NCBI GenBank assembly: GCA_949841595.1
Contig: CATKZB010000004.1
Span: 10,587-74,586 of the forward strand
DNA from: an uncultured Christensenella sp.
Lineage (GTDB): Bacteria > Bacillota > Clostridia > Christensenellales > UBA1242
Length of the DNA stretch: 64,000 nucleotides
Direction: 5' to 3'
Shown one piece after another: positions 3,643-47,415 of the stretch. Within the stretch, counting starts at the first letter, position 1; the number at the start of each line of letters is the position of its first letter. The notes beneath the pieces were generated by a model. The model was not told the origin of the DNA and ran no database searches. It worked only from the letters and a program-made list of their open reading frames with translations. Both the position numbers and the translations under genes were made by a program.

Positions 3643-4155
3643 TTAATCGTGCTTATTTATAAGTTCATATAGTTTTACATCATGAAATTTTCCATTTTTA
3701 AAAGAATGATCCTTGAGAGTCCCAACAAGACTCATTCCACAATTCTGCATAACTTTTCCACTCGCTGGATTTTCAACATAATGTTTTGCATAAATTTTGT
3801 GAAATTTTAATTCTTTAAAAGCAAAATCAATCAAAAGTTTCAATGCTTCTGTTGCATAACCTTTGCCCCAATAATCTGGAGAAATCCAATATCCAACTTC
3901 TCCATGTCTGTCAGCGTTTTCTAAGCCTAAGCCAATGCTGCCAATAAGTTTGTTATTTGATTTTAGAATCACAGCAAATTCCAATCTTTTGTCTTTGTTT
4001 TCTACTTGAGAAGATATCCAACTCTTTGCCATATCAAGAGTATATGGATAAGGCAAAGGTAAATATTTTGTTACATTAAAATCCCTGCACACAGCAAAAA
4101 CTTCTTCTGCATCACCAATCACAAATGGTCTTAAAAAAATTCTTTCCGATTCCAT
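3643..4155 (-). CDS. GNAT family N-acetyltransferase (RimJ/RimL-like)
   Basis: 170 aa with a GYWISPDYWGKGYATEA acetyl-CoA binding-type motif. Confidence 0.75.
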   Translation of the reverse strand: MESERIFLRPFVIGDAEEVFAVCRDFNVTKYLPLPYPYTLDMAKSWISSQVENKDKRLEFAVILKSNNKLIGSIGLGLENADRHGEVGYWISPDYWGKGYATEALKLLIDFAFKELKFHKIYAKHYVENPASGKVMQNCGMSLVGTLKDHSFKNGKFHDVKLYELINKHD

Positions 4156-31839: not shown

Positions 31840-31891
31840 AAATTCCTCATTTAATTTAAAATAAAAAAAGTCTCTTACTAGAAACTCTTAC

Positions 31892-31937
31892 TGGTTGGAT
31901 TGAGTGGACTCGAACCACCGACCCCCACCTTATCAGG
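31892..31937 (-). pseudogene. displaced 3' half of a tRNA-Ile(GAU) gene (anticodon loop to CCA), acceptor variant CAATCCA
   Basis: 31888..31937 is identical to 41828..41877 of the intact tRNA-Ile except A/C at 31899. No 5' half is adjacent. Confidence 0.8.
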
Positions 31938-32045
31938 AAAGTTGACCTTTTTCTTTGGGGTTATACGACTATGCTTAATTGAGCCTATATATAAAGGTTT
32001 TTTGACACCTTTGAAATGTTTTTGATGTCAATCATTTTCTTTCTC

Positions 32046-32067
32046 TTGACATCAGTTGACATCAAAT
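32046..32067 (+). repeat. 22-bp repeat TTGACATCAgTTGACATCAAAT (left end of element)
   Basis: 21/22 identical to 41622..41643. An inverted extra copy TGATGTCAA lies at 32023..32031. Confidence 0.8.
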
Positions 32068-32176
32068 GTGTTATTTTTAATAAAATTGTGTGCTTTTGAA
32101 CTGCCTAAAACTATGAAAGACTAAACTGAACTTTTAAAGAAAGTTTTATAAAAACAATACAAATCAGCAAAGTTTA

Positions 32177-32185
32177 TGATATAAT
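32177..32185 (+). promoter_or_regulatory. extended -10 (TGATATAAT) 6 nt from ATG (predicted leaderless)
   Basis: TGATATAAT, then AAAAGT, then ATG at 32192. The same 15-mer TATAATAAAAGTATG occurs at 23549. The -35 is weak. Confidence 0.45.
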
Positions 32186-32191
32186 AAAAGT

Positions 32192-32965
32192 ATGGTTAAA
32201 GAAATTTTTATAAAAAATAGACAAGGTCTAAAAATGGCTGTTAGATTGAATATTGATGAGCAAAGAACAAAGCTTGTATTTTTGGAACATGGACTTGGTG
32301 CAAGAAAAGAATATCCTCACATGGCTGTGCTGGAAGAAGTTTTCGCAAAAAATGGTTTTAATGTTGTCAATTTGGATGCAACCAATTCATTAAACGCAAG
32401 TGATAGCTCTACCGAAGGCATAACTTTCACAAGCCATTATCACGATTTAGAAGATGTTATCACTTGGGTAAAATCACAAAACTTTTACACTGAGCCATTT
32501 GCGCTTGCTGGGCAATCTCTTGGTGCCGCTTCTTGTATAAATTACGCAGGAAACTATCCACAAAAAGTTGACTGGTTGTTGTTTGCTGCTTGCCCTTTTA
32601 TAGACGGAAATGAGTTGCTCGAAAAAGATGAAATGATGAAACATATTGAAAAATATGGTTTTCTTGAAAAGGTCTCTCGCAGCACTGGCAAAACTCTTAG
32701 AATAAACAAAATTTTTAATGAAGATGTAAAATCTTACAACCTAACAAAACAAATTAAAAACATCACAGCCACTACCTATGTTGTGCAGGGATTGTGTGAT
32801 GAAAAATACATCATTGAAAATAACAAACAAATTTATGATATGCTTAATTGCGAAAAACAAATATATCTTCTTCCAAATGTGCCACATGATTTGGCTAATA
32901 CACAAGAAACAAAAGAAATTTTTGAAAACGCATTGAAAGAGATATTTAATCAAAAGGAGAGATGA
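32192..32965 (+). CDS. alpha/beta hydrolase
   Basis: Nucleophile elbow GQSLG and a C-terminal His (VPHD); 257 aa. Confidence 0.65.
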   Translation: MVKEIFIKNRQGLKMAVRLNIDEQRTKLVFLEHGLGARKEYPHMAVLEEVFAKNGFNVVNLDATNSLNASDSSTEGITFTSHYHDLEDVITWVKSQNFYTEPFALAGQSLGAASCINYAGNYPQKVDWLLFAACPFIDGNELLEKDEMMKHIEKYGFLEKVSRSTGKTLRINKIFNEDVKSYNLTKQIKNITATTYVVQGLCDEKYIIENNKQIYDMLNCEKQIYLLPNVPHDLANTQETKEIFENALKEIFNQKER

Positions 32966-32971
32966 TGTTGG

Positions 32972-33823
32972 ATGAAAATTATCGAAGTTGAAACAAAGCG
33001 TGGAGACATATTGTGTGGGTGTCTTTATGGAGAGAAATATAAAGAAACTTGCGTTATAATCACAAATGGAACTTGTGGAAGCATATTTGAAAATAAGTTT
33101 TTGCAAGTTGTTGGTGAAGAATTAGAGAAACATAAAATTTCTTTTATTTATGCGCACAACAGCGGTGCATTTCATAGAATTGACACCAAAACGAAAAGCG
33201 GCAAGCCATCTGGTTGCACTTACGAACTGTTTGACAATTGCTTGGAAGATTTGCAAGCCTATGTTGATTGGGCAAAAGAAAGCAGATTTAAACACATCAT
33301 TTTAGGCGGACATTCTTACGGAACAAACAAAGTTGTTTACTATCTTTCAAAGAATCAAAACGAGATGATTGATAAGTATATTTTGATTTCGCCAACAGAT
33401 ACAGGCTATCTTAAAGAACATGAGAAGTTGTCAGCAGATGAACTTATGCCAATCGCTCTCAAATTTAAAGAAGAAAATAAACTTGATGAATTGCTGCCTA
33501 TTGCGTTTGACAATTGGAATCTTTACACAGCTCGTGCATTTTTAGATTTTATTGAAAACAAACACGCAAAAAATTTACCTATTTACTCGAAGAATGGAAA
33601 TTGGAAGCAACTTAAAACGATTAAACAAACTGGTCTTTTTGTTATGGGTGAAAAAGACGGTTTTGCATTTGGAAACACCTCAAATCATCTTCAAACAATA
33701 AACGCAAACAGCAAAAACAAAAATAATATTCTTGCAGTTATCGACAGCGCTGGACACACTTTTAGAAACAGAGAACAAGAACTTGCAAACACAATTTTAA
33801 ATTTTGTTAAGGAGTCAAAATGA
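32972..33823 (+). CDS. alpha/beta hydrolase (second, divergent)
   Basis: Nucleophile elbow GHSYG and AGH near the C-terminus; 283 aa. Confidence 0.6.
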   Translation: MKIIEVETKRGDILCGCLYGEKYKETCVIITNGTCGSIFENKFLQVVGEELEKHKISFIYAHNSGAFHRIDTKTKSGKPSGCTYELFDNCLEDLQAYVDWAKESRFKHIILGGHSYGTNKVVYYLSKNQNEMIDKYILISPTDTGYLKEHEKLSADELMPIALKFKEENKLDELLPIAFDNWNLYTARAFLDFIENKHAKNLPIYSKNGNWKQLKTIKQTGLFVMGEKDGFAFGNTSNHLQTINANSKNKNNILAVIDSAGHTFRNREQELANTILNFVKESK

Positions 33824-34380
33824 ATTTAAAAGATATTCAACAAAAAGCCAAAAATGGTGATGGATTATCCACTTACATTTTGGGCAGAGCTTATTATAGC
33901 AGTGAACTTGGATTAAAAACAAATTACCCTAAGTCTTTTGAGTGCTATAACTATGGATACAAGCAATTGAACGATCCAAGGTGTGAATATGGCTTTGCAA
34001 TGTTCTATTTTGATGACGGAGAAAGTGAAAGCGAAGGAGTTGTTGAAAAAGATAATGAATATGCAAACAAACTTTTTGCTGAAGCATATCCAAAACTCGT
34101 TGAACTAGCAAAAAATGGTGATATGTATTCTAATTTCATTTTAGGTGCTTATTACAACTATGGAATTGGTGGAATAAAGAAAGATTTTTCAGTCGCAATA
34201 AAATATATTCAACAAAGTGCTGACTTAGGTCATTCTGGCGCTTGTTATGACATGGGCAGGTTTTACACTGAAGGACGTGGTGTAAAACAAAATTTGGAAG
34301 AAGCAAAAAGATACTTTGAAAAAGCTTCAAAAATGGGCAATGTTCGGGCAAAAGCATTTTTGGAAAAGGAGCAAAAATGA
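33820..34380 (+). CDS. Sel1-like (TPR-family) repeat protein
   Basis: Repeated A..YY..G.G...D...A..Y...A units ending in GNVRAKAFL. ATGA overlap with the upstream gene. Confidence 0.75.
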   Translation: MNLKDIQQKAKNGDGLSTYILGRAYYSSELGLKTNYPKSFECYNYGYKQLNDPRCEYGFAMFYFDDGESESEGVVEKDNEYANKLFAEAYPKLVELAKNGDMYSNFILGAYYNYGIGGIKKDFSVAIKYIQQSADLGHSGACYDMGRFYTEGRGVKQNLEEAKRYFEKASKMGNVRAKAFLEKEQK

Positions 34381-35264
34381 AAAAAGGGCTTCTAATTGGA
34401 TTTACAAAATGGCAAACAGAATGTGCATATAAGATTTATGCCGAATTCTTTGCAAAACACAATATAAAACTTGATTTGTTAAAGATTGATGAATATGTGC
34501 TTGCAATAGAAAATGGCAAACCAAACATAAAGGTAAAAGATTATGATTTTTGTGTAATGTTGGTTAAGGACCAATATATTTCAACATTATTTGAAAAGCA
34601 AGGAAAACTTTGTTTTAATGGGTATAAAGAAATGTCATCATCTGATGATAAATTTTTGACTTATGTTAAACTTGCTGAAAACAATATTCCACTTCCTAAA
34701 ACATTGTCTGGCAACACAGACTTTGATGGTCTAAAAATCTCTGACTATAAACGAAGCGATAGTTTTAGAAATAAAGTTGAAGATTATTTAGGTTATCCTT
34801 TTGTTGCAAAGCCAACTTTTGGCTACGGTGGTAAAGGTGTTGTTATCATAAACAATCGCAAAGAGTTTAATATTTTTCTTGATAATGTTGGTCAAGAGGC
34901 TTATATATATCAAGAGTTTATTCCTGACAATCCGGGTTCGGATATTCGTGTTATGGTTGTTGGTGGTAAAGTTATATTTTCCATTATGAGAAACAATCCC
35001 AATAGTTTCATTAGCAATGTTTCAAGTGGTGGAAATGCAACTAAATTTGAAGCTACAAAAGAACAAAAGAAAATAGCTGTGAAAGTTGCAAAAATTCTTG
35101 GCTTGGAACATTGTGCGGTTGACTTTTTCAATATGGAAGATGGCAGACCGCTTTTGTGTGAAGTCAATGCCAATGCGGGTGGAATTGAAATAAATGAAAA
35201 GCTGACTGGAATAAATCAAGCTGAAAAGTTTGTTGAATATATAGTCGAAAAAATATCTAAATAG
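34377..35264 (+). CDS. RimK-family ATP-grasp ligase
   Basis: GYPFVAKPTFGYGGKGV, IYQEFI, DIRVMVVGGKVI, CEVNANAG motifs. ATGA overlap with the upstream gene. Confidence 0.75.
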   Translation: MKKGLLIGFTKWQTECAYKIYAEFFAKHNIKLDLLKIDEYVLAIENGKPNIKVKDYDFCVMLVKDQYISTLFEKQGKLCFNGYKEMSSSDDKFLTYVKLAENNIPLPKTLSGNTDFDGLKISDYKRSDSFRNKVEDYLGYPFVAKPTFGYGGKGVVIINNRKEFNIFLDNVGQEAYIYQEFIPDNPGSDIRVMVVGGKVIFSIMRNNPNSFISNVSSGGNATKFEATKEQKKIAVKVAKILGLEHCAVDFFNMEDGRPLLCEVNANAGGIEINEKLTGINQAEKFVEYIVEKISK

Positions 35265-35294
35265 AAATGCAAAACGCACTTGTTGTGAACAAAA

Positions 35295-35330
35295 GGAAGC
35301 ATGGCAAAAAACATCATGCTTTTTCTTTTT
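35295..35330 (+). terminator. intrinsic terminator ending the cargo operon
   Basis: Stem AAGCATG/CATGCTT followed by TTTCTTTTT. Confidence 0.55.
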
Positions 35331-35435
35331 GTTGTCCATTATTTAGGACAAGTGGTGGGATGTGTCAATGTTCGACAAAGAATGTTGTCGCTTTTGAAAG
35401 ATTTTTGAGTTTTGTTATGCTATACTTAAAGTGGA

Positions 35436-36200
35436 ATGGAAGAAAAATTTTATGTTAAGATTAAAGATGATTTTGGCGTAGTTCGTGAGTTTGAAGTTCC
35501 TACACTTAAAATGAAAATTGCGATTGACAACATTGACAAAGATTTAAAGGAACAAAACAAACATGACGCTATGAACTATGCACGTTCTTTTTCTGCCTAT
35601 CCAAGTGAGGACTACATAAGTTATAAAGCCAAGCAGTTTGATGACAGCAAACTTATTTCATATTTTGAGCAGCAGCGAGAGATTTTGAAAAAGGCAATTT
35701 GGAAAGTTGTCAAAAATGTGACAAACGAGAAATACAAAAAGATTTTGTATATGAGATTTATTGGCAAAATGAAATTCAATAAGATTGCCGAAAAACTTGA
35801 CTGCTCTAAACAAAGCATATCCGATAACTACAAAACAGCCATTGATGATTTGAGAGTTTTGCTTTGTGAGAATAAAGATTTTCAAAACACATATTTCTTT
35901 AAGCATTGGAAAGAACATTTAAAGATTGAAACTAACTTGATTGCAAAGGAAAAGTTGAACGAATTTGCAAAGACAAAAGACTTTTCTTCAATCACGAGCA
36001 TAGATAAAATTATTGATTTTGTTGATGAAGTCAAAACAATCCAGAAGAAAGAAAAGAAACTTGGTTTGACTGAAAAAACACAAAAAGCATTTAAAGAACA
36101 AAAATTCAATTTTTTTGGCAAAGAATATTCTGTTCAAGATATGTTTGATGTTGTTAGCGAGTTTTTAGAGCCTTTTAGAGAAAAACAAGAGAAAAAATAA
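35436..36200 (+). CDS. sigma-70 region-4-like HTH protein
   Basis: KKILYMRFIGKMKFNKIAEKLDCSKQSISDNYKTAIDDL resembles a sigma region 4 / LuxR-type HTH. Similar small sigma-like genes are common in Bacillota mobile elements. Confidence 0.5.
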   Translation: MEEKFYVKIKDDFGVVREFEVPTLKMKIAIDNIDKDLKEQNKHDAMNYARSFSAYPSEDYISYKAKQFDDSKLISYFEQQREILKKAIWKVVKNVTNEKYKKILYMRFIGKMKFNKIAEKLDCSKQSISDNYKTAIDDLRVLLCENKDFQNTYFFKHWKEHLKIETNLIAKEKLNEFAKTKDFSSITSIDKIIDFVDEVKTIQKKEKKLGLTEKTQKAFKEQKFNFFGKEYSVQDMFDVVSEFLEPFREKQEKK

Positions 36201-36218
36201 GTCATTTTTATCAATGAC

Positions 36219-36632
36219 TTAAATATTATTTAAAACATTGTATAGATTTATTAAGATTTGCGATGTGGCTTCAAACTTAAACTTTAATTGAAAAGTATCA
36301 TCTATAGTATTACCAAGTTCCCCACTGACTTCAACCTTGTTATTCTTACAGTCAAATAGTATCCAGCCATTTGTATCTTGCTCTTGGTCTTCAATCTTAA
36401 TTTGTCTTTCAGTATAATTATCAACTTGTTGTTTTAATACAGGAAGAAATTCGTCAAGTTGCAGTTGGAAACCATCTTCTGCAGAATATTTTAAGGGTTC
36501 CTGACTTACCCAAGATGAGGTCTTCGCTTTTATACCAAAGATGAACCCTTCAAGAAAGTCAAAAGAGCTAATGTTCCCAGTTGATTTAACATACATGATA
36601 ATTTGTGTATCTTCCCAAATTGTTTGTTCCAT
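36219..36632 (-). CDS. hypothetical protein
   Basis: 137 aa acidic ORF. It is the only minus-strand gene inside the element. Confidence 0.4.
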   Translation of the reverse strand: MEQTIWEDTQIIMYVKSTGNISSFDFLEGFIFGIKAKTSSWVSQEPLKYSAEDGFQLQLDEFLPVLKQQVDNYTERQIKIEDQEQDTNGWILFDCKNNKVEVSGELGNTIDDTFQLKFKFEATSQILINLYNVLNNI

Positions 36633-36884
36633 ACTTTGAATCCTTTATGTCAATATTATAGCACTTAATTTGTTTTTTGTATTAAAATTCCAAACAAATT
36701 TCAAAAAATTTTACTGAAAATATCAATTTACCCCTGACTTTTGCCTGTTTTTATACATATGTGAGGGGCAAATGCAAATTAAAGAGAACTGCACGCCACC
36801 AGCAGTTCTTTTTTCTTTGTGAAAATTTATTAAAAGGAGGATTAAAAATGCAACGCTTCTTAATTTACAAAACTTGGAGGAACA

Positions 36885-37343
36885 ATGGCAAGAATTAGAA
36901 CAAAAGATTTAAAAGACCGATATTTGTTTAGAGTGTATGATGAAAGCGAAAGCGAATTATTGCACCGAGCAATCACAAAGTTTAAAGACAACTTTGACAG
37001 TTTAAATGACGCCATAAAACATTTTGCTTTGGTTGGTGCTGACAAAATGCTTGGCGACAACAACTTAAATCAAGGAATAAACTTTTCAGAAATACGAAAA
37101 TATTTGCAAAGTATTGATGACAAACTTGCGGACATTTCTGGCAGACAAAAAATGGACTTTGTGGAAACAAACGCAGAAATCAAGACAAATCAATCACTCT
37201 TAAATTTGATAACAAAACTTTTACACAAGATAAATCAAATCAACATTGGCAATTACACAAACGATTGGAAATATTCCCCACTTGATGAATATGGACTTGA
37301 AGAAGAAAAACAAAATCACTTGCAGGAGCTTATGAATGACTAA
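36885..37343 (+). CDS. MobC-like relaxosome accessory protein (putative)
   Basis: GGAGG RBS. Small basic N-terminus. Overlaps the relaxase start by 8 nt. Assigned by position, not by motif. Confidence 0.4.
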   Translation: MARIRTKDLKDRYLFRVYDESESELLHRAITKFKDNFDSLNDAIKHFALVGADKMLGDNNLNQGINFSEIRKYLQSIDDKLADISGRQKMDFVETNAEIKTNQSLLNLITKLLHKINQINIGNYTNDWKYSPLDEYGLEEEKQNHLQELMND

Positions 37344-38538
37344 TCAAGATGTGCCAAATGTTGTTTACAAGCAAGAGTTTTTTCTTCCACACTATGAAGA
37401 TGAAAAAATGCAAGACAAAAGAAATTATTATTCATCAAACAAATATAGCGACTACCTTAAATATATCGCAACAGGAATTGACGAACTGCAAAAACTTGAC
37501 TTTGTGGAATATTCAAACAATAACTCAAAATCTTCTGGAATCTTCAATCAAAATGGAAAGATGAGTAAAAAAGATATTGCCAATATAAGAAAAGATTTGA
37601 GAGAAACGCAGTCAGTTATTTGGAGTGGCGTTATCTCTTTTGAAGAAAAGTTTGGACTGAAATGGTGCAATAATTTTGAGCAAGCATACAATCTTGTAAA
37701 AAGTGAACTACCGAAATATTTTAAGCGAGCAGGACTTAAAGCGGACAACATTGAGTGGTTTGCAGGATTGCATGAGAACACCGACAACAGACATATTCAT
37801 ATCATCTTTTTTGAGAAAGAGCCACAACGAATTAAAGGCAAGAAAAAGATCTTTTCTCGTAGATATATTTCAGACAAAGCAATGGACTTTTTCAAAGCCA
37901 ATTTGGAACTCGCTGCGACCGATTTTAAGGCTCGTGAGATAAGAGTAAGAACAAACTTAACAAAGAGTTTTAACGAGCAAATAAACGATGTTTTTGGACT
38001 TAAAATGAAGTTTATGCTTTTGAATTTAGCAAACAAGTTTCCAGAGAACGGACACCTTTATTACAACTCTGAAAATATGCAAAACTTAAAATCGCAAGTT
38101 GACAATATCACAAATTATATTATCAAACATAATCCTAATATTACACTCTACAAAGACGATTTTGACGAGCTTGTAAAAGAAAAAGATGATAAAGTAAATA
38201 GCTATTGCAAACGGAATGGTTATGACAAACCAAGCGAAAGTGTTGGAGATAAAATGATGAATGACATATATCGAAGGCTTGGAAATATTGTGATTGAAAG
38301 TGCAAAGAATTTAAAAGTTGAAGAAACACAAAGGACAAAACTGAATGCAAAAAATTTAGTTGAAAAACGAATGCAAAAAAGCAAATTAAAAAGAGAACTT
38401 GACGAGTGTTTATATCTCAATTCAAAGGTTGAATTTGAAGCTATTAAAGCCTTTCAGGACTATATGAATAAACTTGAAGAAATGCACATAAAGACTTTGA
38501 TTGAACAAGGAATTTTGAGTAGTGACTTTGAGATGTAA
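37336..38538 (+). CDS. relaxase/mobilisation nuclease domain protein
   Basis: His-triad-like motif HENTDNRHIHIIF about 150 aa from the N-terminus, and a coiled-coil C-terminus. Confidence 0.6.
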   Translation: MTNQDVPNVVYKQEFFLPHYEDEKMQDKRNYYSSNKYSDYLKYIATGIDELQKLDFVEYSNNNSKSSGIFNQNGKMSKKDIANIRKDLRETQSVIWSGVISFEEKFGLKWCNNFEQAYNLVKSELPKYFKRAGLKADNIEWFAGLHENTDNRHIHIIFFEKEPQRIKGKKKIFSRRYISDKAMDFFKANLELAATDFKAREIRVRTNLTKSFNEQINDVFGLKMKFMLLNLANKFPENGHLYYNSENMQNLKSQVDNITNYIIKHNPNITLYKDDFDELVKEKDDKVNSYCKRNGYDKPSESVGDKMMNDIYRRLGNIVIESAKNLKVEETQRTKLNAKNLVEKRMQKSKLKRELDECLYLNSKVEFEAIKAFQDYMNKLEEMHIKTLIEQGILSSDFEM

Positions 38539-38738
38539 GCACTAAAAATATAGAAATATTTAGTATAGAGCATAAGCGAGAAACAAAAATAGATTTAAGT
38601 GGCAAAAAGTGCCATATGTAAGGCACTTTTAACTGATACACTTAAATTTTTTCTTTCTCGTCTTTTTTGGAAGCTGTTGGGATACCCAACACTTCTTTTT
38701 TAATGAGAATATTAAGACTAAAAATACGAGGAGACAAT

Positions 38739-39002
38739 ATGAATTTACAAAACGAACAACAACTAAATATTAACAATTTAATACAAACCGAAACCCAAAG
38801 AATTTCAACTAAATACAACAAAGATTTTTTGGATTGTGAGGACATTATGAAAATCACAGGACTTGGCAGAGATAATGTTCGACAACTCTTACGAAGCAAG
38901 AATTTTCCCACAACAAAAGTTGGCAAAAGACAAGTTGTGAGTGTGCTTAACTTTGTGAGATATATCACTTTGCAAAATCAGAGCGAGGTAGCAAATGGCT
39001 AA
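38739..39002 (+). CDS. excisionase-family / MerR-like HTH DNA-binding protein
   Basis: EDIMKITGLGRDNVRQLLRSKNFPTTKVGKRQVV. GAGGAG RBS. Overlaps the integrase start. Confidence 0.6.
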   Translation: MNLQNEQQLNINNLIQTETQRISTKYNKDFLDCEDIMKITGLGRDNVRQLLRSKNFPTTKVGKRQVVSVLNFVRYITLQNQSEVANG

Positions 39003-40329
39003 GAAGAAAGTTGTAAGCAAAACCCGCAGAGCAAATAACGAGGGTTCAATTTTTCAAAGAAAAGATGGTCGTTGGGTTGGCGCTGCTGCTGCCGGTTATG
39101 ACGATGATGGTAAACTAATTCGCAAATATGTTTATGGCAAAACAAGAATGGAAGTTGCAAATAAACTGAGCGAACTGACAAACAGAATTGAAAGCGATAA
39201 CTTTGATTATGTTGACAAAAATAATCTTGGAACTTTGATGAACGAATGGCTTTTGGTGTTTAAGAAAAATCAAGTTACGCCACGAACTTTTGAAGGAGTT
39301 TATAGCAAATTTAAACTGCATATCGAGCCCAAAGTTGGCAATATGAAAATTGATGAAGTAACGACTTTGACAATTCAAAAAGTGCTTAATCAAATGCTTG
39401 AAGATGGATATAGTTTAGATGTTGTGCGAAAGACAAAAGTTGTGTTTAATCAATTTTTCGATTATGCTGTTCAACATAAATTTGTTGCAAACAATCCAAC
39501 ACTTCTCACAAGAGTAAAAAGTAAAGAAAGAAAAATTTACGATGGCGAAAATAAATACAAAGCAATTCCACCTGAAGCGAGAGTAAAGTTTTTAGAGTGT
39601 TTAAATGAACACAAACTTTTAAAACCACTTTGTCTTTGTATGATGTTGGCAGGCTTGCGAACTGGCGAAGCTCTTGCTTTGATGTGGAAAGATATTGACT
39701 TTGAAAACAAAACAATCAATGTTGAACGAGCAACAACAATTGTGCCAAAGTTTGACGAGAACGGAAAAATTAAAGAAAGAATAACGGTTATAAGCGAAAC
39801 AAAAACTGCTTGCTCAAAACGAGTTGTGCCAATGCCAGACCTTTTAGTTAATGTGTTAAAAGACTATAAAATCGAACAAGAACTTAAAGGAGACGAAAAA
39901 GGCATAAATTTAATAGATAAATCTTCACTCATTTTTTGTAAAGATGATGGCAGTTTAAGAACATATTATGGAACAAAGAAAATATTGTATCGCTTTCTTG
40001 AAAAACATAAACTTGGTAATTTAGGTATTCACTTTCACACTTTAAGGCACACATATTCTAATATGCTTTTTGAAGCCGACCAAAACCCAAAAGTTATACA
40101 AGCTTTGCTTGGGCACAAATCTGTCAAAACAACAATCACAACATATAACTCTGTTGATAAATCCTATTTTCAAAAAGCAACCGATGTTTTGAATAACAAT
40201 TTTAAAGTTGAAACTGAGCCGACCAAGATTGAACAAATGGAAGATGACGAACTTGATAAAGAACTCGAAGAACTAATGCGAGAGAAAGAAGAACGCAGAA
40301 GAAAAAGGAACAAAGATTTTGAAATGTAA
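38995..40329 (+). CDS. int: tyrosine-type site-specific integrase
   Basis: N-terminal SAM-like domain. Catalytic residues in GLRTGEALAL (R), HTLRHTYSNML (HxxR), LLGHKSVKTTITTY (H...Y). Confidence 0.9.
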   Translation: MAKKKVVSKTRRANNEGSIFQRKDGRWVGAAAAGYDDDGKLIRKYVYGKTRMEVANKLSELTNRIESDNFDYVDKNNLGTLMNEWLLVFKKNQVTPRTFEGVYSKFKLHIEPKVGNMKIDEVTTLTIQKVLNQMLEDGYSLDVVRKTKVVFNQFFDYAVQHKFVANNPTLLTRVKSKERKIYDGENKYKAIPPEARVKFLECLNEHKLLKPLCLCMMLAGLRTGEALALMWKDIDFENKTINVERATTIVPKFDENGKIKERITVISETKTACSKRVVPMPDLLVNVLKDYKIEQELKGDEKGINLIDKSSLIFCKDDGSLRTYYGTKKILYRFLEKHKLGNLGIHFHTLRHTYSNMLFEADQNPKVIQALLGHKSVKTTITTYNSVDKSYFQKATDVLNNNFKVETEPTKIEQMEDDELDKELEELMREKEERRRKRNKDFEM

Positions 40330-40356
40330 AAAATTAATACAAAATTAAAGTAAATG

Positions 40357-40365
40357 TGATATAAT
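40357..40365 (+). promoter_or_regulatory. extended -10 (TGATATAAT) 6 nt from ATG (predicted leaderless)
   Basis: TGATATAAT, then TAAATT, then ATG at 40372. No Shine-Dalgarno sequence. Confidence 0.45.
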
Positions 40366-40371
40366 TAAATT

Positions 40372-40857
40372 ATGAAAAAGAAAATAAACGAATTGAATAA
40401 TTTATATCAACCTGCCTTAGATATGGTTGAAAGCGTTTGCAAAATTTTAAATTTTAAAAATTTTGATTACAAATTAGGTTTTTACAATAATCATGAAATT
40501 AAGTTTAAAAATCAATTTATAAAAGAAATATATCCTATACCTGTAATTAGCTGCAAAATAAACAAATTTAAAATTGACATTGGTTTTGATGTAGCAACTG
40601 ATATTGATTATATAGGATTTTCGGAGTTTACATTAGACAAAAAAGATATTTTGATTTTTGACTTTAATGCATTGAAAAATTTTGAATTTGAAATTTATGG
40701 TTTTGAAAATTATTTAGAAGATTACTATTTTGGAGATATTGTAAAAACGAAGCAACTTATTTCTCAATCTAAAGAAATAAAATTTCATATTGGAATTAAC
40801 ATTGCAAGCATAAATCAAATAGAAGATTTATTGAAGGTGCTGGAGGACATTCGATGA
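40372..40857 (+). CDS. hypothetical protein
   Basis: 161 aa. ATGA overlap with the downstream ASCH gene. Confidence 0.45.
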   Translation: MKKKINELNNLYQPALDMVESVCKILNFKNFDYKLGFYNNHEIKFKNQFIKEIYPIPVISCKINKFKIDIGFDVATDIDYIGFSEFTLDKKDILIFDFNALKNFEFEIYGFENYLEDYYFGDIVKTKQLISQSKEIKFHIGINIASINQIEDLLKVLEDIR

Positions 40858-41255
40858 GACATATAGCAATATTTAGGCAACCATTTTTTGATATGGTTTT
40901 GTCAGGAGAAAAAACTATCGAGAGTAGATGGTCAATGAAAAAAGTTGCACCTTATGACAAGGTAAAGGTTGGTGATGAACTTTTACTAAAACAAACAAGC
41001 CATGATGTGACCGCAACAGCAAAAGTCAAAGAGGTAAAGTATTTTGAACTTACACCACAAATTGCTGATGAAATAAAAGTAAAATGGAATAAAGAAATCG
41101 GGATTTATAAGTTTGAAAATTGGGAAGCATATAGGAATAAAAAATATTGCACATTGATTTGGCTTGAAGATGTAAAGCAAGTTGAACCAATGAACGTAAA
41201 ACGGAGTAATGGCGCAGGTTGGATTGTTATTACAGATAAGCCATGGAGGAAATAA
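40854..41255 (+). CDS. ASCH domain protein
   Basis: MRHIAIFRQPFFDMVLSGEKTIESRW matches the typical ASCH N-terminus; 133 aa. Confidence 0.6.
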   Translation: MRHIAIFRQPFFDMVLSGEKTIESRWSMKKVAPYDKVKVGDELLLKQTSHDVTATAKVKEVKYFELTPQIADEIKVKWNKEIGIYKFENWEAYRNKKYCTLIWLEDVKQVEPMNVKRSNGAGWIVITDKPWRK

Positions 41256-41257
41256 TT

Positions 41258-41608
41258 ATGTCAATAGAAGAATTGAAGCATATTTTAGATAACGTTTATG
41301 ATAAAAATACCGCTCATAGAAAATGGAGAGAAAAATGGAATAAAAATAATCCAACTTATGGGCAATGTGTTCCAACAGCATTGTTAGTGCAACATTATTT
41401 TGGTGGCGAAATATATAAACACAATGTAGAATCCCATTATTTTAATGTTATTGATGGAAAAGTTGTTGACCTTACCAAAGAGCAATTTAATTATGAATTA
41501 GACTATTCTAATAGCAAACAAAAACAACCAAACTTATCTCAATCACAAACCAAAGAGAGATTTGAGCTATTAAAAGAAAGAGTAGAAAATTTTAAAAGAA
41601 AAAAATAG
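41258..41608 (+). CDS. hypothetical protein (YunG-like pattern)
   Basis: GGAGG RBS before MSIEELK. NPTYGQCVPTAL...GGEIY...HYFN...DLTKEQF pattern. Weak assignment. Confidence 0.4.
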   Translation: MSIEELKHILDNVYDKNTAHRKWREKWNKNNPTYGQCVPTALLVQHYFGGEIYKHNVESHYFNVIDGKVVDLTKEQFNYELDYSNSKQKQPNLSQSQTKERFELLKERVENFKRKK

Positions 41609-41621
41609 TAGTATTAAGCTT

Positions 41622-41643
41622 TGACATCAATTGACATCAAATA
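41622..41643 (+). repeat. 22-bp repeat TTGACATCAaTTGACATCAAAT (right end of element)
   Basis: Direct copy of 32046..32067. The adjacent 14-mer AGTTTTAGGCAGTT (41649..41662) is the reverse complement of 32099..32112. Confidence 0.8.
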
Positions 41644-41673
41644 TATCAGTTTTAGGCAGTTTTATATAGAACA

Positions 41674-41715
41674 AGACCGATAAGATAAAATTCACTCTTA
41701 TCGGTCTTTTTTTTA
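41674..41715 (+). terminator. intrinsic terminator
   Basis: 12-bp stem AAGACCGATAAG/CTTATCGGTCTT plus a T-run. Confidence 0.7.
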
Positions 41716-41802
41716 TGTCTTTTTATAGTTAAAAATTATTTGCTGTAAAAAAATGGTATCGTTGCTGTCAAAATTTTGCCTTAAAAAGCGTTAAAAAACA
41801 AT

Positions 41803-41829
41803 GAAAAAAGCCCGAATTTACGGGCTTTT
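41803..41829 (-). terminator. intrinsic terminator after tRNA-Ile
   Basis: Minus strand AAAGCCCG-TAAATT-CGGGCTTT followed by TTTTCAT. Confidence 0.65.
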
Positions 41830-41831
41830 AC

Positions 41832-41908
41832 TGGTTGGCTTGAGTGGACTCGAACCACCGACCCCCACCTTATCAGGGTGGTGCTCTAACCGACTGAGCT
41901 ACAAGCCA
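41832..41908 (-). tRNA. tRNA-Ile (anticodon GAU), intact
   Basis: Hand-folded: acceptor TGGCTTG/CAAGCCA, D-arm GCTC-AGTCGGTTA-GAGC, anticodon stem CCACC/GGTGG with loop CTGATAA, T-arm GGTGG-TTCGAGT-CCACT, ACCA end. Confidence 0.9.
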
Positions 41909-41967
41909 TTATGAAATTTTTGTTCGGACATGGCAGGTTCTGACCCTGCGTCTCCAGCCCCGAAATT

Positions 41968-42009
41968 ACCTTATCAGGGTGGTGCTCTAACCGACTGAGC
42001 TACAATCCA
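41968..42009 (-). pseudogene. orphan 5' half of a tRNA-Ile(GAU) gene (position 1 to anticodon loop), acceptor variant TGGATTG
   Basis: 41968..42009 equals 41867..41908 except T/G at 42006. Downstream it continues into unrelated sequence (TAATTTCGGGGCTGG...), so no 3' half follows. Confidence 0.8.
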
Positions 42010-42065
42010 TTATTAAACATTCCAAACATCGACGGGGATGTGTCGACATTTTTGAATGCTGTTTT

Positions 42066-42094
42066 ATTATAACCATAATAAATAATTCTGTCAA
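42066..42094 (-). promoter_or_regulatory. perfect consensus sigma-A promoter upstream of the tRNA-Ile 5' fragment
   Basis: Minus strand TTGACA, 17 nt spacer, TATAAT, about 55 nt upstream of position 1 of the fragment. Confidence 0.65.

Positions 42095-45881: not shown

Positions 45882-47415
<1,534 letters not shown>

Follow-up and report, generated by a model that had tools for sequence, protein, structure and literature searches.

An integrative mobilizable element (IME) has very probably split the host tRNA-Ile(GAU) gene at an 11-bp core, and it carries a whole replacement tRNA behind the host promoter. The structure of the locus, the empty site, the boundaries of the insert, the intact element-borne tRNA, and the recurrence of this design in relatives are demonstrated. 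The window discussed throughout is the whole 64-kb stretch of DNA that was analysed.

The tRNA-Ile locus and its empty site

A preliminary description of this DNA had claimed three tRNA-Ile pieces on the minus strand, with C4-G69 in the acceptor stem of the intact gene, A4 in the 5' half, and U69 in the 3' half. ARAGORN, Rfam, a repeat search, and reading of the strand bear out the pieces, and the acceptor variants are seen on the minus strand. The perfect TTGACA-17-TATAAT promoter and the shared 11-mer that it had described are likewise present. The features of the locus are as follows.

42066..42094, minus strand: host sigma-70-type promoter of the tRNA-Ile gene, TTGACA-17-TATAAT, matching at 12/12 positions; the same sequence lies upstream of the empty-site tRNA
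42010..42065, minus strand: host leader of the tRNA-Ile transcript, identical in the empty-site allele, with a hairpin at 42029-42046
41968..42009, minus strand: orphan host 5' piece of tRNA-Ile(GAU), 42 nt, tRNA positions 1-41, acceptor TGGATTG (A4)
41968..41978, minus strand: attL copy of the 11-bp common core CCTGATAAGGT, tRNA positions 31-41, called from identical 11-mers at both insert ends
41909..41967, minus strand: element-derived spacer, 59 nt, comprising a relic tRNA 3' half and then a short leader
41832..41908, minus strand: element-borne intact tRNA-Ile(GAU), acceptor TGGCTTG/CAAGCCA (C4-G69), missing from the empty site
41806..41829, minus strand: intrinsic terminator of the element-borne tRNA, a 9-pair stem and then a T run
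31927..31937, minus strand: attR copy of the 11-bp core CCTGATAAGGT, identical to the attL 11-mer
31892..31937, minus strand: orphan host 3' piece, 46 nt, tRNA positions 31-76, CAATCCA (U69), with encoded CCA
31938..41967 (equivalently 31927..41956, owing to the 11-bp repeat), no strand: whole inserted element, 10,030 bp, from the empty-site alignment

The single tRNA-Ile call that ARAGORN makes in the window is the intact tRNA-Ile(GAT) at 41832..41908 on the minus strand, which Rfam scores at 71.4 bits. The core consists of the 7-nt anticodon loop and four stem bases (1 and 3) of tRNA-Ile(GAU). The orphan 5' piece terminates in this core, beyond which the sequence diverges into aatttcgg, and the orphan 3' piece, in the minus-strand reading, starts with CCTGATAAGGT and ends with CAATCCAACCA. 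The repeat search of the window finds a 53-nt repeat (31885-31937 and 41825-41877) and a 50-nt repeat (41867-41916 and 41968-42017), each with 96% identity. This three-piece arrangement is not a product of chance.

The empty-site allele, L005, is a near-isogenic Logan contig from SRR32904301. In it, the same promoter and leader are followed by a single tRNA-Ile(GAT) with A4/U69 and then by a GNAT gene, and the extra 5' tRNA fragment is absent from this element-free allele. After in-silico excision of 31938..41967, the insertion limits that had been proposed, the window and L005 form one continuous alignment of 1,960 bp with 99.3% identity; the excised part includes the intact C4-G69 tRNA. Both orphan pieces are identical to the matching parts of the L005 tRNA, which is the sum of the 5' piece and the 3' piece. 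Since the insert-free window matches L005, the two halves were once one gene, as had been suggested. The empty-site search that had been recommended thus ended in a junction at the 11-bp core, and attB lies within the host tRNA gene, as the intact L005 tRNA occupies the exact position of the insert.

A functional tRNA is rebuilt at neither junction, in agreement with the earlier claim of non-regeneration: attL, which receives no ARAGORN call, holds only a pseudo-tRNA of 30.7 bits, and attR holds the 3' half alone. The presence/absence polymorphism at the site indicates recent mobility and nothing beyond it. Three scans of the collection yielded neither a circular form nor an attP junction; excision and the attP sequence are thus predictions.

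Gene content and class of the element

Genes of the element lie nearly all on the plus strand, and its GC skew is opposite to that of the flanks. Its features, from the distal end to the tRNA-proximal end, are listed below.

32023..32064 (32023 minus, 32046 plus, 32056 plus): candidate arm-type integrase sites of the distal (P) arm, motif TTGACATCA, by motif count
32192..35458, plus strand: cargo, comprising two alpha/beta hydrolases, a Sel1-repeat protein, a RimK-like ATP-grasp ligase, and a 63-aa ORF (Pfam)
35436-36200, plus strand: sigma-70 region-4-like regulator, a backbone gene
36219-36632, minus strand: 137-aa ORF, a backbone gene
36885-37343, plus strand: 152-aa ORF upstream of the relaxase, a backbone gene
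37336..38538, plus strand: MobL/MobP2-type relaxase, 400 aa (Pfam MobL, 3.7e-24)
38667..39002, plus strand: putative excisionase or directionality factor, overlapping the start of int, with a weak HTH_17 match (E 0.0069)
38995..40329, plus strand: tyrosine integrase, 444 aa (Pfam Phage_integrase, 1.9e-23, plus SAM-like and central domains; PHROG 1 integrase, 3.9e-62)
40372..41608, plus strand: three small genes that separate int from the P' arm, one for a 161-aa protein without assigned function, one for an ASCH-domain protein, and one for a YunG-like protein (Pfam)
41621..41639, plus strand: candidate arm-type integrase sites of the tRNA-proximal (P') arm, two repeats of TTGACATCA

Judged by its genes, the insert is an IME, having an integrase, att repeats, an empty site, and MobL but no pore genes; an oriT was not identified. 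The relaxase is 25-29% identical to annotated MobP2 plasmid relaxases. The same gene occurs in the element of L034, where the regulator, an ORF of ~150 aa, and MobL stand in identical order. The position of the HTH gene, which is called as 87 aa in L001, hints weakly at an Xis role. The motif TTGACATCA has 8 copies in the window against 1.6 expected, 5/8 of them at the two element ends, and the distal-arm sequence is conserved beside the distal 3' fragments of L021, L022, L024, and L025; these copies may be arm-type integrase sites. PADLOC recognised no defence system in the element.

Other identities were considered for the insert and rejected. Its PHROGs matches are to integrase, regulator, and DNA/RNA-binding families, with no phage structural family, and it has MobL, so it is phage-like in mode and not a temperate phage. 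An ICE of the ICEPmu1/ICEMh1 type was rejected on its 10-kb size, its one lambda-type integrase, its tRNA-Ile(GAU) target, and its lack of conjugation genes: no VirB4, coupling protein, or pore family was found among the genes of the 10-kb element. A classical tRNA-regenerating island of the Islander type was rejected because the island-borne 3' portion is degenerate and a separate complete gene would supply the function.

Proposed mechanism and alternative histories

The spacer is a relic tRNA 3' half and not neutral filler. The relic has a T-arm-like GCAGG/GTCAGAA/CCTGC followed by CATGTCC, and together with the 5' piece it gives a weak tRNA match at 41925..42008 (Rfam 30.7 bits, cut-off 29), in which the anticodon loop has 13 inserted nt and 4 of the pairs are non-standard. 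Weak tRNA matches at the equivalent position are also found in L012, L026, and L031. This decayed 3' half suggests that the element may descend from a classical attP that regenerated the 3' half of its target. The preliminary description had given the replacement tRNA its own terminator, which is called (41829..41806) and has a related counterpart downstream of the element tRNA in L031, and a distance of 60 nt from the broken half, which is in fact 59 nt. In a promoter scan, neither the distal arm nor the spacer showed a usable promoter directed at the element tRNA. Because of this result and the geometry of the locus, the element tRNA is probably transcribed from the host promoter. When the predicted primary transcript is folded to its minimum free energy, the structure lacks a cloverleaf and is uninformative.

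In the proposed mechanism, the lambda-type tyrosine integrase would recombine the element attP with the host attB, the two sharing only the 11-bp core. Recombination at so short a core would cut the host tRNA-Ile gene in two and, for that reason, would not rebuild it. The tRNA-proximal side of attP would consist of the core, the decayed tRNA 3' half, a leader of ~15 nt, tRNA-Ile(GAU), and the terminator, and after integration this cassette would follow immediately on the host promoter, its leader, and the orphan 5' half. The transcript from the host promoter would most likely be the source of the replacement tRNA, which the usual processing at both ends, 5' and 3', would set free. The host gene would be restored by precise excision between the two 11-bp cores, and the MobL relaxase may let the element use the conjugation pore of another element. 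Matches to tRNA-Ile(GAU) number at least 118 from 117 assemblies, and the gene occurs once per assembly in 117/118 of the matches listed, these being incomplete MAGs. The 16S gene has no linked tRNA-Ile, and the tRNA-Ile(GAU) of the window lies outside any rRNA operon. The host may need the element tRNA, which may be essential.

Integrase relatives with 60-85% identity adjoin tRNA-Ile in about 26 species. The order of promoter, 5' piece, ~60-nt spacer, intact tRNA, terminator, and int is found in L012, L016, L025, L026, L031, and L034-L037, and the layout recurs with different sequences in >10 species. The earlier reasoning from matched acceptor stems extends to two independent insertions, in which the orphan halves are again complementary: L025 has TGGAATG in the 5' piece and CATTCCA in the distal 3' piece, L034 has AGGACTG and CAGTCCT, and the element tRNA of both has AGGATTG/CAATCCT. 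The orphan halves thus match each other at 3/3 loci with both ends available. In L026/L112, L124, and L127, orphan 5' halves stand one behind another in ladders of 2-3.

These ladders also bear on a composite history, in which the element is no fixed unit: recombination in the shared tRNA sequence would pass the spacer and tRNA cassette from one element to another, and later reactions, whether excision or the integration of newcomers, would go through the tRNA-internal core instead of the one at attL. The classes of spacer and terminator do not follow integrase identity; the tRNA beside int in L020 is a hybrid with a mismatched acceptor (AGAGATG/CAATCCA) and no ARAGORN call; and in L021, L022, L039, and L041 the arm of another element abuts the 3' half of an element-borne tRNA. 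In the window, the second core copy, inside the element tRNA, is ~230 bp from the P' arm sites, compared with ~330 bp for the attL core. However, the empty site lacks the full 10,030 bp, together with the cassette, as one piece, and the identical element is present in two MAGs, and we regard a composite origin of this insertion as improbable.

Classical integration, with the 3' half of the present intact tRNA as the target, the 53-bp repeats as attL/attR, and the 5' piece at 41968..42009 as an older host relic, is very unlikely. The 53-nt repeat, 96% identical, is shaped like a regenerated tRNA with its displaced 3' fragment, and the integrase relatives L018, L030, L032, and L038 lie beside tRNA-Ile with no upstream orphan 5' piece, so a classical mode may exist in the integrase family. 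At this locus, though, the empty site has no 5' relic and a single A4/U69 tRNA, a C4 5' half joined to a U69 3' half would give a C-U mismatch in the acceptor stem, and the orphan halves pair with each other at all three loci. The match of the insert-free window to L005 likewise refutes the classical alternative of the preliminary description, in which 50-bp repeats served as attL/attR. An assembly artefact, in which repeated tRNA sequence was mis-joined in the MAG, can be dismissed almost entirely: contigs of the locus often break within the tRNA (L006-L010, L181, L182) and at least one is apparently chimeric (L011), but the attL junction is shared by two separate MAG assemblies (L059/L179 and L180), the identical attR junction is in an independent Logan contig (L058), the layout recurs with other sequences in the species counted above, and the junctions lie at an 11-bp repeat, too short for assembler error.

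With integration at the 11-bp core and replacement of the tRNA as the preferred reading, a wider one can be put forward tentatively, at just under even confidence. The element tRNA-Ile may be a portable attB, so that family members insert serially into each other's tRNA, each newcomer bringing the next working copy. The apparently single, essential tRNA-Ile(GAU) of many species of this gut Clostridia clade would then be element-derived with a foreign acceptor stem, the ladder of orphan 5' halves, with its ~101-nt period, would record the succession, and a whole tRNA would remove the need for a host-compatible acceptor stem in a clade in which this stem is variable. It is less likely that the conserved relic 3' half is kept as a tRNA-like decoy that folds with the orphan 5' half and helps to process the read-through transcript.

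The survey of the integrase family suggests that a tRNA gene that is essential and single-copy can have its sequence overwritten by mobile elements in one species after another, which, if confirmed, would bear on the spread of tRNA acceptor-stem variation. For annotation, island finders that use a regenerated tRNA and a displaced 3' fragment would set the boundary at the 53-bp repeat and miss the real attL, 101 bp further out. The attP-int-tRNA cassette could serve as an integration vector in these bacteria, which are hard to manipulate, as proposed for mycobacterial systems.

Comparison with known systems

In the Haemophilus influenzae phage HP1, attP holds the 3' half of the target together with the downstream tRNA gene(s) of the operon, which restores the whole transcription unit downstream of the host promoter. 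HP1 regenerates the proximal tRNA, and its additional tRNAs belong to other isotypes; in the present element the proximal copy is defunct and the additional tRNA shares its isotype.

In classical islands and prophages in tRNA/tmRNA genes, following the Islander definition (PMC4383910), an attP-borne 3' portion restores the split gene. The present element shares with this type the tyrosine integrase, a target in the region of the anticodon loop, int near the tRNA end, a position 3' of the promoter-proximal tRNA, and a displaced 3' fragment that marks the far end. It differs from this type in that the 3' portion has decayed to the 30.7-bit pseudo-tRNA and a whole second gene takes over. The Lactobacillus johnsonii prophage Lj965, as cited in PMC10865867 and PMC3714127, reportedly leaves its target tRNA unrestored and carries tRNA genes that could compensate; it is likewise a Firmicutes element without rebuilding of the target, but it is a prophage with 4 tRNA genes.

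The preliminary description had set this element apart from classical integrases. Its point on regeneration holds, but the principle of tRNA replacement is already published (PMC10865867; PMC6028734, PMC6861422), and the present element is a further example of it. Pasteurellaceae ICEs of the ICEPmu1/ICEMh1 family, in tRNA-Leu(UUG), carry an intact tRNA-Leu with a third, disrupted tRNA copy upstream of the full-length one (PMC6028734, PMC6861422). They are non-phage elements with the same three-piece layout, and only this att/tRNA layout is common to the two. The ICEs, which were compared by description, are self-transmissible elements of 50-80 kb in Gammaproteobacteria with type IV secretion genes and XerCD-like recombinases, whereas here a small IME, whose only integrase is of the lambda type, targets tRNA-Ile(GAU).

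Actinobacteriophages with tRNA-dependent lysogeny (Fionnbharth/K4, Cluster L, Gaia, and others) were described by Guerrero-Bustamante and Hatfull in 2024 (PMC10865867). These phages have a tyrosine integrase and an attB in a tRNA gene with a core of 8-17 bp, so the tRNA is not rebuilt; close relatives of their integrases follow the classical regenerating mode. The tyrosine integrase, the attB in a tRNA, the short core (11 bp here), and the element-carried tRNA are shared with the present element. Theirs are temperate phages of Actinobacteria, whereas here the element is a 10-kb mobilizable island of gut Clostridia with no phage genes. The Fionnbharth tRNA lies elsewhere in its genome with its own demonstrated promoter, whereas the tRNA described here is 59 nt away from the core and runs in the direction of the host gene, and the scan detected no promoter belonging to it. 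The tRNA requirement is experimental in the actinophages and is a prediction here. With the present element, replacement of the tRNA in place of its regeneration reaches a small mobilizable island of uncultured gut Clostridia, and the same logic is now found in phages, ICEs, and IMEs of three phyla.

Structure and boundaries of the insertion

Three pieces of tRNA-Ile lie on the minus strand of the window, as the preliminary description had claimed, and their layout and coordinates were borne out by ARAGORN, Rfam, a minus-strand reading, and a repeat search; only the spacer before the intact gene, described as 60 nt, measures 59 nt. The features of this region are as follows.

42094..42066 (-): host promoter, TTGACA-17-TATAAT
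42009..41968 (-): orphan tRNA-Ile 5' half, 42 nt, TGGATTGTAGCTCAGTCGGTTAGAGCACCACCCTGATAAGGT in the minus-strand reading
41832..41908 (-): intact tRNA-Ile(GAT), the sole tRNA-Ile called by ARAGORN in the region, Rfam 71.4 bits
41829..41806 (-): predicted terminator of the intact tRNA
31937..31892 (-): orphan tRNA-Ile 3' piece, 46 nt, from CCTGATAAGGT to CAATCCAACCA, about 10 kb from the intact gene
31885-31937 and 41825-41877: 53-nt repeat, 96%, from the repeat search
41867-41916 and 41968-42017: 50-nt repeat, 96%, from the repeat search

The promoter, earlier called perfect, matches at 12 of 12 positions, and the terminator proposed behind the intact tRNA is likewise predicted. On the minus strand the orphan 5' half ends after tRNA position 41 and is followed by the divergent aatttcgg, while the intact gene has the acceptor stem TGGCTTG/CAAGCCA.

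An exact look-up of the GNAT protein encoded just outside the 3' piece retrieved a near-isogenic empty site, the Logan contig L005 (SRR32904301), which has the promoter and leader of the window, one tRNA-Ile(GAT) with the acceptor stem TGGATTG/CAATCCA, and the GNAT gene directly after it. When 31938..41967 is deleted in silico, the window aligns with L005 over 1,960 bp at 99.3% identity with an unbroken junction, so the two orphan pieces, joined via the 11-bp repeat CCTGATAAGGT, make up the host gene. This alignment establishes the structure and boundaries of the insert, which is 10,030 bp long and includes the intact C4-G69 tRNA. The preliminary description had proposed these same limits, an origin of the two halves from one gene, and a search for an empty site; L005 is such a site and bears out the first two, with a single, uninterrupted tRNA of the A4/U69 type whose junction is the host halves joined at the 11-bp repeat. 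The three-piece observation is thus confirmed, and its interpretation as a gene split by an element is supported. Classical integration at the 53-bp repeats, into a locus where the 5' piece was already present, would place the crossover within the intact tRNA, but it fails because the element-free allele L005 has no 5' relic. Nor are the junctions assembly artefacts, as attL is found on contigs from two separate MAGs (GCA_948647925.1 and GCA_948504575.1) and attR in an independent Logan assembly.

A 921-bp Logan contig (L011, positions 1-240) was considered as a second occupant type and rejected. It links a tRNA-Ala and the 5' half of another tRNA-Ile (AGGAATG) to the 3' half and GNAT gene of this host, and it is probably a de Bruijn-graph chimera formed via the shared 40-nt tRNA core because its acceptor strands do not pair.

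Gene content, attachment sites, and the spacer

Within 31938..41967 almost all genes are on the plus strand, and the GC skew is opposite to that of the flanks. Pfam matches give the following order.

First block (+): two alpha/beta hydrolases, a Sel1-repeat protein, and a RimK-type ATP-grasp enzyme
After the cargo block: sigma-70 region-4-like regulator
37336-38538: MobL relaxase, a distant relative of annotated MobP2 plasmid relaxases
Overlapping the start of the integrase gene: small gene with a weak HTH_17 match
38995-40329: tyrosine integrase
Last in order: three small genes, namely an unknown, ASCH, and YunG

Judged by this gene set, the element is an integrative mobilizable element (IME) and not a prophage; a PHROGs search of the element returned integrase, regulator, and DNA/RNA-binding families only, and no structural family. 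The best phage match to the integrase (34% identity), a 6.7-kb 'Bacteriophage sp.' record, is without a tRNA and was set aside. The cargo at 32192-35458 (+) is an operon-like run of the two hydrolases, the Sel1-repeat protein, the RimK-like ATP-grasp ligase, and a 63-aa ORF, and this stretch has no match to known defence systems. PADLOC recognised no defence system in the element cargo, and its one hit, the Sel1 protein as the N-terminus of PtuA, was discarded for having no matched stretch.

The core corresponds to tRNA positions 31-41, that is, the 7-nt anticodon loop with one and three stem bases. The motif TTGACATCA is present in 8 copies in the window against 1.6 expected, and five of the eight lie at the element ends, at 32023(-), 32046(+), 32056(+), 41621(+), and 41631(+). 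A distal arm with these repeats is kept beside the distal 3' fragments of four related elements, and more distant integrase subfamilies have other repeats at the distal-arm position. These end copies of TTGACATCA are good candidates for arm-type integrase sites.

A promoter scan of the distal arm gave no sigma-70-like promoter facing the tRNA, and that of the spacer gave only a 9/12 match whose -10 hexamer adjoins tRNA position 1; no terminator is predicted between the host promoter and the element tRNA. The element tRNA therefore appears to be promoterless and positioned for reading from the host promoter, from which it is presumably transcribed. On excision, the junction of the element circle would read ...GGTCAACTTTC-CCTGATAAGGT-AATTTCGGGG... 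and the vacated locus would equal L005. The window-specific attL/attP pattern found no circular or attP junction in genome contigs; a degenerate distal-arm/core/spacer pattern gave three unrelated chance matches in metagenome contigs and none in viral contigs, and Logan contigs matching the first or last element genes were attR or integrated copies only.

The Rfam tRNA model matches 41925..42008, a span made up of the orphan 5' half and the larger part of the spacer, at 30.7 bits (cut-off 29). The alignment has four non-standard pairs, 13 extra nt inserted after CUGAUA, and a T-arm-like GCAGG/GUCAGAA/CCUGC. From this match we read the spacer as a decayed tRNA 3' half followed by a leader of about 15 nt. 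Weak Rfam tRNA matches occur at the equivalent place in three related loci (L026, 38.6 bits; L031, 36.9 and 34.8 bits; L012, 32.8 bits). As for the evolutionary route, we infer that attP formerly bore a classical regenerating 3' half, which would have decayed once a complete tRNA-Ile was gained just downstream; that gain might, speculatively, go back to an aberrant excision that captured the flank of a locus with two tRNA-Ile genes. The minimum free energy fold of the predicted 257-nt primary transcript is uninformative on decoy folding, as it yields no cloverleaf even for the intact tRNA. Rfam matches to HPnc0260, SpF41, and similar models at 41750-41950 were rejected as separate features because they coincide with the complementary strand of the tRNA or with its flank. 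The HPnc0260 model, which describes an antisense RNA of Helicobacter, scores 44-64 bits at 41750-41870 (+) and in the related loci L012, L034, and L037, antisense to the 3' half of tRNA-Ile and to its terminator; since the aligned part is the complement of the T-arm and acceptor, the match seems to be an artefact of the model and not a gene.

Related elements and serial replacement of tRNA-Ile

A back-translated integrase search of species-representative MAGs found relatives at 60-85% identity in about 26 MAGs of uncultured Clostridia (Christensenella-like, Candidatus Caccovivens, and similar). Nine of the related loci (L012, L016, L025, L026, L031, and L034-L037) have the window layout. The host promoter, or in its place an upstream tRNA-Ala, leads into an orphan 5' half that stops at CCTGATAAG(GT); about 60 nt of spacer separate this half from an intact tRNA-Ile whose acceptor stem is different, and a terminator and then int follow. 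At two further loci with both ends available, each orphan half is complementary to the other and not to the element tRNA.

Acceptor strands of the tRNA pieces at loci with both element ends available
L025: orphan 5' TGGAATG; distal 3' CATTCCA; element tRNA AGGATTG/CAATCCT
L034: orphan 5' AGGACTG; distal 3' CAGTCCT; element tRNA AGGATTG/CAATCCT

The backbone of regulator, ~150-aa ORF, MobL, and int is common to the window and the L034 element, but L034 carries different cargo genes, which encode Fic, a YpsA SLOG protein, and a P-type ATPase of the heavy-metal type. The element in L025 lacks a relaxase and is 4.5 kb long. One spacer/tRNA class, gaatttgaccac... (tRNA AGAGATG), stands behind orphan halves of at least four acceptor stems, which fits a role of the full tRNA in freeing the element from an acceptor-stem match with the host.

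The tRNA of the element is itself a copy of attB. At four loci (L021, L022, L039, and L041) the distal-type arm of one element runs directly into the 3' half of a tRNA bearing a terminator of the element kind, and at all of these except L022 that 3' fragment adjoins an int gene. Three orphan 5' halves spaced by 101-102 nt precede the intact gene in L026/L112, and L124 and L127 have two each. A scan for the intact tRNA-Ile core found at least 118 loci from at least 117 assemblies. The cultured relative Anaerocaecibacter muris (L160), an isolate, also has this tRNA core. Among the matches listed, one to three orphan 5' halves are present in 18 of the 101 loci with enough upstream sequence, with a window-type junction in about 11 of these 18, and the orphan acceptor stem is often unlike that of the working gene. 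Such orphan halves with differing acceptor stems support serial insertion and horizontal replacement of the tRNA-Ile gene, in which the intermediate elements are not all visible.

The window has only one tRNA-Ile. Its 16S gene, 45882-47414 (-), is complete and is followed within the window by no 23S, 5S, or spacer tRNA (tRNA-Ile/Ala), so the rRNA genes of this organism appear unlinked; tRNA-Ile(GAU), 3.9 kb away, stands alone. Among the matches listed, which come from incomplete MAGs, the tRNA-Ile core nearly always occurs once per assembly. All element-borne copies are called tRNA-Ile by ARAGORN and have paired acceptor stems, except a hybrid in L020, and the relic halves have decayed. These observations are consistent, within incomplete MAGs, with tRNA-Ile(GAU) being an essential single-copy gene, for which the host would need the tRNA of the element.

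The L020 hybrid (3772-3933; 5' AGAGATG, 3' CAATCCA) has a mismatched acceptor, adjoins an 82%-identical integrase, and receives no ARAGORN call. It could have arisen by recombination between two elements at the core of the tRNA or through chimeric assembly of the MAG; a genuine hybrid would show the cost of joining halves of different tRNA-Ile variants.

A second type of broken tRNA-Ile unit has a 5' half ending ...GAGCACCAC(CCTG), then 40-55 inserted nt that include a conserved GCCGAG...GCGAACGCC hairpin, and then the relic AAGGTGGGGG, sometimes with a T-arm. The unit is sometimes tandemly duplicated (~190-nt units in L025), its motif is absent from the window, and another element family with a different crossover point may have left it as an attL scar. 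It occurs at the following places.

L016: 5400-5520
L017: upstream of 7597 and downstream of 7521
L025: 11700-12090
L031: 11737-11841
L037: 1380-1520
L103, L126, and L132

Three loci that look element-free, L013 (2165-2400), L014 (downstream of 209), and L017 (downstream of 7521), have an inverted anticodon-arm copy with a loop insertion (CCACCTTAT...CAGGGTGG) within 100-200 nt past the intact host tRNA-Ile and terminator, and a duplicated tRNA 3' half within the same distance; these could be what is left of degraded islands, or a miniature non-autonomous element. In place of a tRNA 5' half, L043 (800-1200) has ...TTCCTTCTAATAAGGT and a GC-rich segment with repeats in front of the spacer and tRNA of L034. 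The segment differs from the AT-rich host and has no Rfam match; it could reflect a secondary integration site or another inserted element. L024 has a 78%-identical integrase and a decayed distal 3' fragment; the 10 kb downstream of int contain no tRNA-Ile, and the intact tRNA-Ile of its MAG is on another contig (L094). L023 has no tRNA pieces in the fetched flanks. These two may be old copies that no longer move, or arrays that extend beyond the fetched flanks.

Comparison with known systems

In standard tRNA islands, as outlined in the Islander account (PMC4383910), the split gene is restored by sequence within the island. Replacement of the tRNA is already published for phages and ICEs. Tyrosine integrase phages with tRNA-dependent lysogeny, as defined by Guerrero-Bustamante and Hatfull (mBio 2024; PMC10865867), use an 8-17 bp core in a tRNA that is not rebuilt, and lysogens are viable only with a phage-encoded tRNA of the matching isotype; related integrases with 78% identity follow the classical mode, and the Fionnbharth tRNA, encoded at a different place in the genome, has a demonstrated promoter of its own (PMC10865867). 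The Pasteurellaceae ICEs ICEPmu1/ICEMh1 are a published exception to the island-restored split gene (Beker et al., PMC6028734). In them a disrupted third copy lies immediately before the full-length one (Cameron et al., PMC6861422), which is the three-piece layout of the window. A keyword search of the literature, not exhaustive, found no description of the present element family. Its value lies in a clean empty-site proof and a family-level picture of serial tRNA replacement. Particular to the present case are a small IME with a lambda-type integrase as the element class, the host clade, and tRNA-Ile GAU as target; to these are added the evident relic of a regenerating 3' half, an apparent dependence on the host promoter, and, in the family, ladders of tRNA fragments.
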